The translations under genes were made by a program, and so were the position numbers. The notes beneath the pieces are model-generated. The model was given only the letters and a program-made list of their open reading frames with translations. It did no database searches and was not told where the DNA came from. Positions 28,422-28,761 of a stretch of 42,657 bases of DNA are shown one piece after another (position 1 is the first letter of the stretch; every line of letters starts with the position of its first letter). Source of the DNA: Escherichia phage Flotzy. The stretch lies in the sequence record PP925827.1, one strand, 5' to 3'.

Positions 28422-28478
28422 ACCGATCCTCTTATAAGTGAAAAATTGCCTGTGCTTGATCTGTTTTTATAAAAATAC

Positions 28479-28498
28479 TACTGTATATGCATACAGTC
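28479..28498. promoter_or_regulatory. LexA operator (SOS box)
   Basis: TACTGTATATGCATACAGTC = CTGT-N8-ACAG consensus, between divergent dinI-like gene and the 28522 ORF. Confidence 0.8.
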
Positions 28499-28521
28499 AA
28501 TAAGTGAGTGAGGGTGTGTTC

Positions 28522-28761
28522 ATGCCTCGTCAACCGGATATTCGTGCTGCTTTTATTGCGGCCATACAGCAAAACCCGAAGGGCTATCTCTGCCTGCATA
28601 CAGACAAATTCATCGCTGAACTGCAGGAGAGGCACTGGCATTTCAGCCAAGCGGATGCAAATTCATGGATCGAGCGATACCAGCCGGACTTCGCCGATAA
28701 GACGACAAACGGAAGTGAGAACCGATACTGGATCCTGCGTAACATGGGGAGGGTTTTCTAA
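28522..28761 (+). CDS. hypothetical protein (probably SOS-regulated)
   Basis: ORF ~25 bp downstream of LexA box with GAGGG RBS. Confidence 0.45.
   Translation: MPRQPDIRAAFIAAIQQNPKGYLCLHTDKFIAELQERHWHFSQADANSWIERYQPDFADKTTNGSENRYWILRNMGRVF

Follow-up and report, generated by a model that had tools for sequence, protein, structure and literature searches.

The window, i.e., the whole 42,657-nt stretch of DNA analyzed here (PP925827.1), is the genome of a free lambdoid (HK97-like) phage, Escherichia phage Flotzy. Its accessory region, between the tail-fiber gene and attP, contains a module consisting of a minus-strand dinI-like gene, a LexA box, and a plus-strand operon of two genes, orf79 and a short UmuD'/HumD-like gene (Table 1). 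In the database, this region was closest to Escherichia phage Eeyore (97% over 78% of the 3.1-kb query), with the HK97-like phages mEp390, HK140, and HK225 as further close relatives. The stop codon of orf79 overlaps the start codon of the 106-aa gene (TAATG).

A preliminary description of this DNA had placed the module next to attP, and a 50-nt block identical to proL at 29183-29232 bore this out. In an alignment with E. coli K-12 proL, the attP core was followed by a diverged copy of the proL tRNA terminator, and the matches to E. coli prophages broke off at the core. No E. coli chromosome was continuous across the region because the region spans attP, and ARAGORN detected no complete tRNA because only the 3' part of proL is present there. 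No Rfam family reached its gathering score around the locus. A GC-rich hairpin at 28093-28120 (GCCGCCCAT...ATGGGCGGC, with a 10-nt loop) lies between the convergent tail-fiber and dinI genes and is probably a terminator common to both; a clear T-run is missing on the dinI strand, and the scan did not report this hairpin.

Table 1. Genes and regulatory features of the module and its flanks (positions in the window)
Feature	Position	Strand	Description
Tail-fiber gene	26802-28085	+	Left of the dinI-like gene and convergent with it
dinI-like gene (88 aa)	28155-28421	-	Matches Pfam DinI (PF06183), PHROG 189, and 1GHH
Rightward -35 hexamer, TTGATC	28456-28461	+	Predicted; conserved in the box-anchored alignment, same in umuDC
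Leftward (dinI) -10 hexamer, TATTTT	28472-28477	-	Predicted (promoter scan); directly past the box
LexA operator (SOS box), TACTGTATATGCATACAGTC	28479-28498		Predicted; 17/20 consensus positions, top score in the window
Rightward -10 hexamer, TACTGT	28479-28484	+	Predicted; inside the LexA box, 17 nt after TTGATC
Leftward (dinI) -35 hexamer, TTGACT	28495-28500	-	Predicted (promoter scan, 9/12); overlaps the right end of the box
orf79 (79 aa)	28522-28761	+	Conserved protein, predicted winged-helix fold
Short UmuD'/HumD-like gene (106 aa)	28761-29081	+	PHROG 3469; starts MGFPSPAMDY at the UmuD Gly25 position
Terminator-like hairpin and T-run	29093-29109	+	Ends the rightward operon; stem TGGGGG/CCCCCA, then TTTTT
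attP core	29183-29232	-	50 nt; 3' end of proL tRNA-Pro(GGG) plus AAAA
Integrase gene	29369-30562	-	Right of attP

A predicted LexA operator and its conservation

The palindrome TACTGTATATGCATACAGTC carries CTGT at 28481-84 and ACAG at 28493-96, and its half-sites (ACTGTAT/ATACAGT) are perfectly symmetrical. The dinI ATG (28421, minus strand) is 57 bp away on one side, and the ATG at 28522 on the plus strand is 23 bp away on the other, in agreement with the distances of ~60 bp and ~25 bp (to the ORF at 28522) given in the preliminary description. The near-consensus CTGT-N8-ACAG palindrome that had been pointed out there also proved to be the best site in the window, matching the reference consensus of the gammaproteobacterial LexA operator (TACTGTATATATATACAGTA) at 17 of 20 positions. 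By the same count, the E. coli umuDC operator matches at 18 positions, and the annotated LexA site of P1 humD/lxr matches at 17.

Site strength was judged from mismatch counts and from a weight matrix of homologous operators in place of the published heterology index. The matrix was built from 54 operators of homologous loci (see below), with close relatives of the window excluded. The palindrome had the highest score in the window (27.5 bits; maximum over 200 shuffles, 17.9), and exactly four sites in the window exceeded the shuffle maximum, the next-best site having 2.6 bits. Sites with up to 3 mismatches to the 20-nt consensus occurred once in the window versus 0.00 expected (100 shuffles). 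The shorter CTGT-N8-ACAG pattern was present 3 times versus 0.42 expected, a number that was reached in 1 of 100 shuffles.

To place the box in a wider context, we scanned one genome per species and obtained 80 loci encoding relatives of the 106-aa protein (33 to 99% identity) in the Enterobacterales; the genera included Enterobacter, Klebsiella, Raoultella, Kosakonia, Citrobacter, Pantoea, and Erwinia. A box (i.e., at least 13 of 20 consensus matches within 330 nt upstream) preceded the umuD'-like operon in 73 of the 80 loci, and three of the seven loci lacking one were cut off by contig ends. Box density was 2.83 per kb in these upstream regions versus 0.029 per kb in the remaining sequence of these loci (~100-fold). 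The box was located 12 to 26 nt ahead of the first gene of the operon, whether this gene was an orf79 homolog or the umuD'-like gene itself. Since the operator was assigned from its sequence, a chance match with no regulatory role has to be considered, but this reading is scarcely credible given that 0 of 100 shuffles came as near to the consensus, that the matrix score lies well above the shuffle maximum, and that boxes are so strongly enriched at the equivalent position in homologous loci. The palindrome looks real, that is, like a genuine LexA operator as predicted.

A divergent dinI gene was present in only 10 of the 73 box-bearing loci, in two architectures. In the first, a single box is shared with orf79, as in Flotzy; in the second, dinI directly abuts the umuD'-like gene, with two tandem boxes. 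Elsewhere, the divergent neighbors of the box were GtrA-like or acyltransferase genes, or there was none. In phage HK225, the umuD'-like gene is absent, although orf79, the box, and dinI are all present. Because the box travels with the operon and a dinI partner is rare, the box is primarily the operator of the umuD'-like operon, and "shared" control is therefore specific to this clade. Judged from these sequences, the sharing of a box with dinI is a derived arrangement that recurs. The preliminary description had assigned one box to both transcription units; the geometry, the promoter overlap described below, and the conservation fit that claim, but it has to be amended in that the box belongs in the first place to the orf79-umuD'-like operon.

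Predicted overlapping divergent promoters

A box-anchored alignment of 72 distinct upstream contexts revealed a conserved TTGATC exactly 17 nt ahead of the box, and the first six bases of the box (TACTGT) therefore correspond to the -10 hexamer. The predicted rightward promoter for the orf79-umuD'-like operon is thus TTGATC-17-TACTGT, with a transcription start inferred near 28491, within the box. The generic promoter scan missed these weak hexamers (4/6 and 3/6), which were assigned on the basis of their conservation and their identity to the hexamers upstream of umuDC.

In the leftward direction, the scan predicted TTGACT-17-TATTTT for dinI, with the box filling the 17-nt spacer and overlapping the -35 hexamer. 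The TTGACT hexamer exists because of a nonconsensus C at box position 20, which was present in all of the dinI-linked loci checked. The sole dinI-less locus with the same C (L077) does not form the TTGACT hexamer. Three independent prophage dinI loci (L052, L055, and L059) exhibited the same layout, in which a TTGAC(G/A) -35 hexamer overlaps the box, the box serves as the spacer, and a TATAAA -10 hexamer follows immediately. The SOS box of Flotzy accordingly overlaps the predicted -10 hexamer of the rightward promoter as well as the -35 hexamer and the spacer of the predicted dinI promoter. With the two promoters arranged back to back and overlapping, a single LexA dimer would be enough to block them.

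We consider it probable (roughly 0.7) that a single LexA operator silences both units in the lysogen and frees them together on DNA damage. A LexA dimer on 28479-28498 would cover the rightward -10 hexamer and start site, and the same dimer would cover the -35 hexamer and the entire spacer of the leftward dinI promoter, so that the dinI unit and the orf79-umuD'-like unit would both be kept off in the lysogen. RecA-stimulated self-cleavage of LexA following DNA damage would then turn on both units together. The recurrence of dinI and the umuD'-like gene as divergent neighbors in two architectures was counted in favor of shared control.

Alternatively, the box may act as an operator for the rightward operon only, with dinI being LexA independent and merely adjacent. 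This would be in line with the 73 loci in which the box accompanies the umuD'-like operon, as opposed to the 10 with a divergent dinI, and with the fact that other prophage dinI copies have a box of their own. However, the sole promoter-like site upstream of dinI has its -35 hexamer within the box and uses the box as its spacer, a layout repeated at the independent dinI loci. In addition, the C that creates TTGACT was found wherever dinI was linked, the dinI-less locus that shares it lacks the hexamer, and the loci with dinI immediately beside the umuD'-like gene retain two boxes. We therefore regard control of the rightward operon only as improbable.

Products of the module

The preliminary description had called the minus-strand gene dinI-like, and the profile searches agreed. 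Its product matched Pfam DinI (PF06183; E value, 8.5e-23; 80.9 bits; cut-off, 24.2), PHROG 189, and E. coli DinI (1GHH; E value, 2.4e-7), and the alignment with the latter included the C-terminal acidic helix, through ...LEEMFEESDMWLVSE. This helix, which contacts RecA in the DinI family, appears from the alignment to be kept in the phage DinI. With the NCBIfam DinI equivalog, the score was 40.8 bits (cut-off, 111), and we therefore assign the protein to the DinI family but not as an ortholog of the chromosomal protein. E. coli DinI binds RecA filaments and inhibits UmuD processing more than LexA cleavage. The phage DinI would likewise modulate host RecA filaments.

The orf79 protein is predicted to adopt a winged-helix fold. 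In Pfam, it had a sub-threshold match to DUF7669 only, and an exhaustive profile search of 1.84 billion representatives recovered no more than 157 relatives. Among the fusions, only apparent joins to UmuD'-like sequence were informative, and these are possibly frameshifts or gene-calling artifacts. Given that orf79 regularly co-occurs with UmuD'-like genes, apparent fusions included, a role alongside them is indicated; translationally coupled to the 106-aa gene, its product would be an accessory partner. PADLOC yielded no meaningful defense-system match for the dinI-like, orf79, or 106-aa protein.

Both rightward genes had been described as encoding unknown proteins. This still holds for orf79, apart from its predicted fold, but not for the 106-aa protein, which is UmuD'/HumD-like. 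The 106-aa protein begins with MGFPSPAMDYQEQR, which aligns to UmuD residues 25 to 38 (overall alignment, 25 to 49), and its N terminus coincides with the exact start of cleaved UmuD' (Gly25). It matched PHROG 3469 ("UmuD-like") with an E value of 1e-47, and a profile of its family aligned end to end with P1 HumD (hhalign probability, 98.6%; E value, 7e-16). Among 25 family members, the N-terminal arm (MGFPSPAxDY) was invariant, while the body diverged. An AlphaFold2 model of moderate quality (pLDDT, 73) was searched with Foldseek, and all of the top matches were S24 C-terminal domains of LexA, UmuD', or CI (TM score to UmuD', 0.58 to 0.62), as expected for a protein with the predicted S24 (LexA/UmuD) beta fold. 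The resemblance to UmuD' and HumD extends to the C-terminal strand (GVVTHxIN) and the tail motif.

The Ser-Lys catalytic dyad of the S24 peptidases is absent from this protein. The loop with the catalytic Ser60 is lost through a 12-residue deletion, and family members have K, R, or I at the position corresponding to Lys97. The protein had no match to Peptidase_S24 or to any other Pfam family, and its match to NCBIfam HumD (NF051876; 33.6 bits; cut-off, 120) covered residues 1 to 22 only. Scoring below the HumD cut-off and lacking a Pfam S24 match, it therefore belongs to a separate, short HumD-like subfamily (PHROG 3469), on which literature searches turned up no paper. Sequence and model together point to a pre-truncated UmuD'/HumD-like protein, i.e., a short relative of P1 HumD. 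Such a protein would stand in for UmuD' from the outset, with no requirement for RecA-mediated cleavage; P1 HumD is reported to act in this way together with host UmuC. The module is inferred to act on the host SOS machinery via its products.

In view of the missing Ser60 loop and the moderate model, the 106-aa protein may differ from HumD in its action and might even be inhibitory. With regulation as described above, it might be a decoy that holds UmuC, UmuD/UmuD', or RecA filaments inactive and that, together with DinI, would damp host mutagenesis during induction. The loop deletion, the low identity to HumD (~28%), the score under the HumD family cut-off, and the invariance of the arm next to a diverging body would all suit a decoy, as would the restraint of UmuD processing by DinI. 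On the other hand, the Ser-Lys dyad is not required for the function of the already cleaved form of UmuD, and the C-terminal strand and tail motif remain like those of UmuD' and HumD. P1 HumD itself is reportedly a functional UmuD' homolog (McLenigan et al. 1999). We hold the decoy function to be possible, if on the doubtful side.

Related systems and other LexA-like sites

The regulatory principle is not new, with precedents in phage P1, the Gifsy prophages, and E. coli umuDC. The P1 record (NC_005856) annotates a "LexA binding site in the regulatory region of lxr and humD" located 19 nt before humD; therefore, a LexA box common to a UmuD'-like gene and a divergent gene has already been described. 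P1 and Flotzy share the MGFPSPA start at the UmuD' N terminus, a box assigned to both the humD or humD-like gene and a divergent gene, and the absence of umuC from the phage. They differ in protein length (129 aa for P1 HumD versus 106 aa), in the Ser60 loop that is missing in Flotzy, in the interposition of orf79 between the operator and the humD-like gene, and in the divergent partner (lxr in P1 versus dinI in Flotzy).

The E. coli umuDC control region (TTGATC-17-TACTGTATATAAAAACAGTA, 19 nt before the ATG) has its box over the -10 hexamer with the same hexamers and spacing as the rightward promoter of Flotzy. In contrast to umuDC, Flotzy lacks umuC, its gene is truncated to the UmuD' form, and in this clade the operator would also serve a divergent dinI promoter. 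Many homologous phage loci keep the exact umuDC box TACTGTATATAAAAACAGTA and an upstream ATTGATAGGC-like motif. Because hexamers, spacing, upstream motif, and exact box are shared, the control region looks inherited from a umuD ancestor, and the umuDC control region of the host appears to be the source of the phage operator and promoter.

The motif (A)ATTGATAGGC was located upstream of the -35 hexamer, ~35 to 45 nt before the LexA boxes, in many of the prophage umuD'-like loci (L008 to L078). Upstream of E. coli K-12 umuD (L085, positions 187 to 196), it takes the form ATTGATAGCC, and Flotzy keeps it only in part (AAATTGCC at 28443-28450).

The dinI operons of the Gifsy prophages are LexA controlled, as established experimentally (Lemire et al. 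2011, PMC3121763), and a survey of the SOS regulon reported SOS boxes and nalidixic acid induction for dinI homologs of Salmonella prophages (PMC8072944). In Gifsy-1, -2, and -3, as in Flotzy, a prophage dinI homolog is situated right behind a LexA box; SOS induction is known for Gifsy and predicted here. However, the Gifsy dinI gene heads an operon with an antirepressor needed for induction, whereas Flotzy has a self-cleaving repressor and the unrelated orf79. The Flotzy CI consists of an HTH domain and a Peptidase_S24 domain (E value, 3e-21) with an Ala-Gly site and GDSM and VKRL motifs. Being of the self-cleaving type, it needs no antirepressor.

The module might nevertheless be an SOS induction switch, with orf79 or the 106-aa protein acting as a LexA-repressed antirepressor against a prophage repressor, on the model of the Gifsy phages, 186 Tum, and N15 AntC, possibly in trans on other prophages. 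The rightward genes are small, predicted to be LexA controlled, and located beside dinI, reminiscent of the Gifsy dinI-gfoA/gftA operons. The cleavable CI speaks against this switch, as does the steady company that orf79 keeps with UmuD'-like genes, apparent fusions included. An orf79 profile showed no similarity (hhalign probability, 0.7%) to the Gifsy-2 ORF between dinI and the irsA homolog, which we take to be gftA. A precedent exists in Fels-1, which carries a functional antirepressor homolog yet has a cleavable repressor (PMC3121763). Overall, the induction switch is very improbable, and orf79 as an antirepressor was rejected in view of the cleavable CI and the lack of similarity to the presumed gftA.

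Direct control by LexA of a phage gene outside the immunity region, as predicted in Flotzy, is also a feature of phage 186 Tum and N15 AntC, with the difference that induction in Flotzy is possible via CI self-cleavage. The 186 Tum protein contains a DinI-like half (PMC3121763).

Flotzy represents an HK97-like coliphage with a compact, putatively SOS-responsive accessory module, and the locus defines a widespread, uncharacterized subfamily of short UmuD'-like proteins, which are devoid of the catalytic serine and have a steady 79-aa partner. Members of this subfamily are encoded by prophages of Enterobacterales, in most cases at the end of the prophage. Should they change the activity of polymerase V, damage-induced mutagenesis could vary among lysogens, which in turn could alter the speed of antibiotic resistance evolution. 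A more ambitious and rather unlikely proposal is that the three genes form a phage unit that takes over the activation of host polymerase V, as one arm of a four-operator "LexA regulon." DinI could block the RecA-dependent maturation of host UmuD, and the phage could add a serine-less, pre-truncated UmuD' surrogate with orf79 as its dedicated winged-helix partner. If this were true, the phage rather than the host would set lesion bypass or mutagenesis during induction.

Apart from the shared operator, the three other sites above the shuffle maximum are conserved in the sequences of relatives, the attP-side one only among close relatives. This site (29287-29306, GACTGTATATGCAAACAGTG; 21.5 bits) is separated from the attP core by 54 nt and from the stop codon of the integrase gene, which it precedes, by 62 nt. 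It agrees with TACTGTATATGCATACAGTC at 17 of the 18 inner positions, and both phage Eeyore and the E. coli ECONIH4 prophage have it unchanged. No convincing promoter hexamers were detected at 29287-29306. Given that a two-gene cassette (HTH and ImmA/IrrE) lies just downstream on the same strand in ECONIH4, GACTGTATATGCAAACAGTG may be the operator of an accessory cassette that is absent from Flotzy.

The site at 2037-2056 (TACTGTAATTATAAACAGTG; 23.3 bits) spans codons 3 to 9 of a DNA methylase ORF (2029-3057); Q (991-1695) and a terminator-like hairpin (around 1789-1815) lie upstream of this ORF. SfV, phiNP, and a Providencia phage retain the site at 69 to 84% DNA identity, including at synonymous positions (ACT, AAC, and AGT), and an Stx2a phage has a CCAG variant of this box, with one codon changed.

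The remaining site (36295-36314; 24.3 bits) is inside cI (35828-36523, minus strand), in the part encoding the linker. Read in the cI sense, it forms TTTACA-17-TACTGTATGTAAATCCAGTG, i.e., a umuDC-type geometry. All of the 55 distinct cI sequences compared (69 to 100% protein identity) had a box at this very position, and its central bases and the flanking linker were variable across relatives; it was also present in ST64B, Stx2a_WGPS2, mEp460, and Kp4871-1. Literature searches found no description of a LexA box inside cI. The box may be a LexA-gated internal promoter that yields a truncated CI or reads out into downstream genes. In the transcriptome of ST64B, whose cI has the box, genes downstream of cI exhibited damage-induced expression (PMC7067206). 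Between cI and the early-left genes, where long ORFs are absent, the minus strand at 35272-35408 matched the RprA small-RNA family below the threshold (43.2 bits versus a gathering score of 70; E value, 0.0017).
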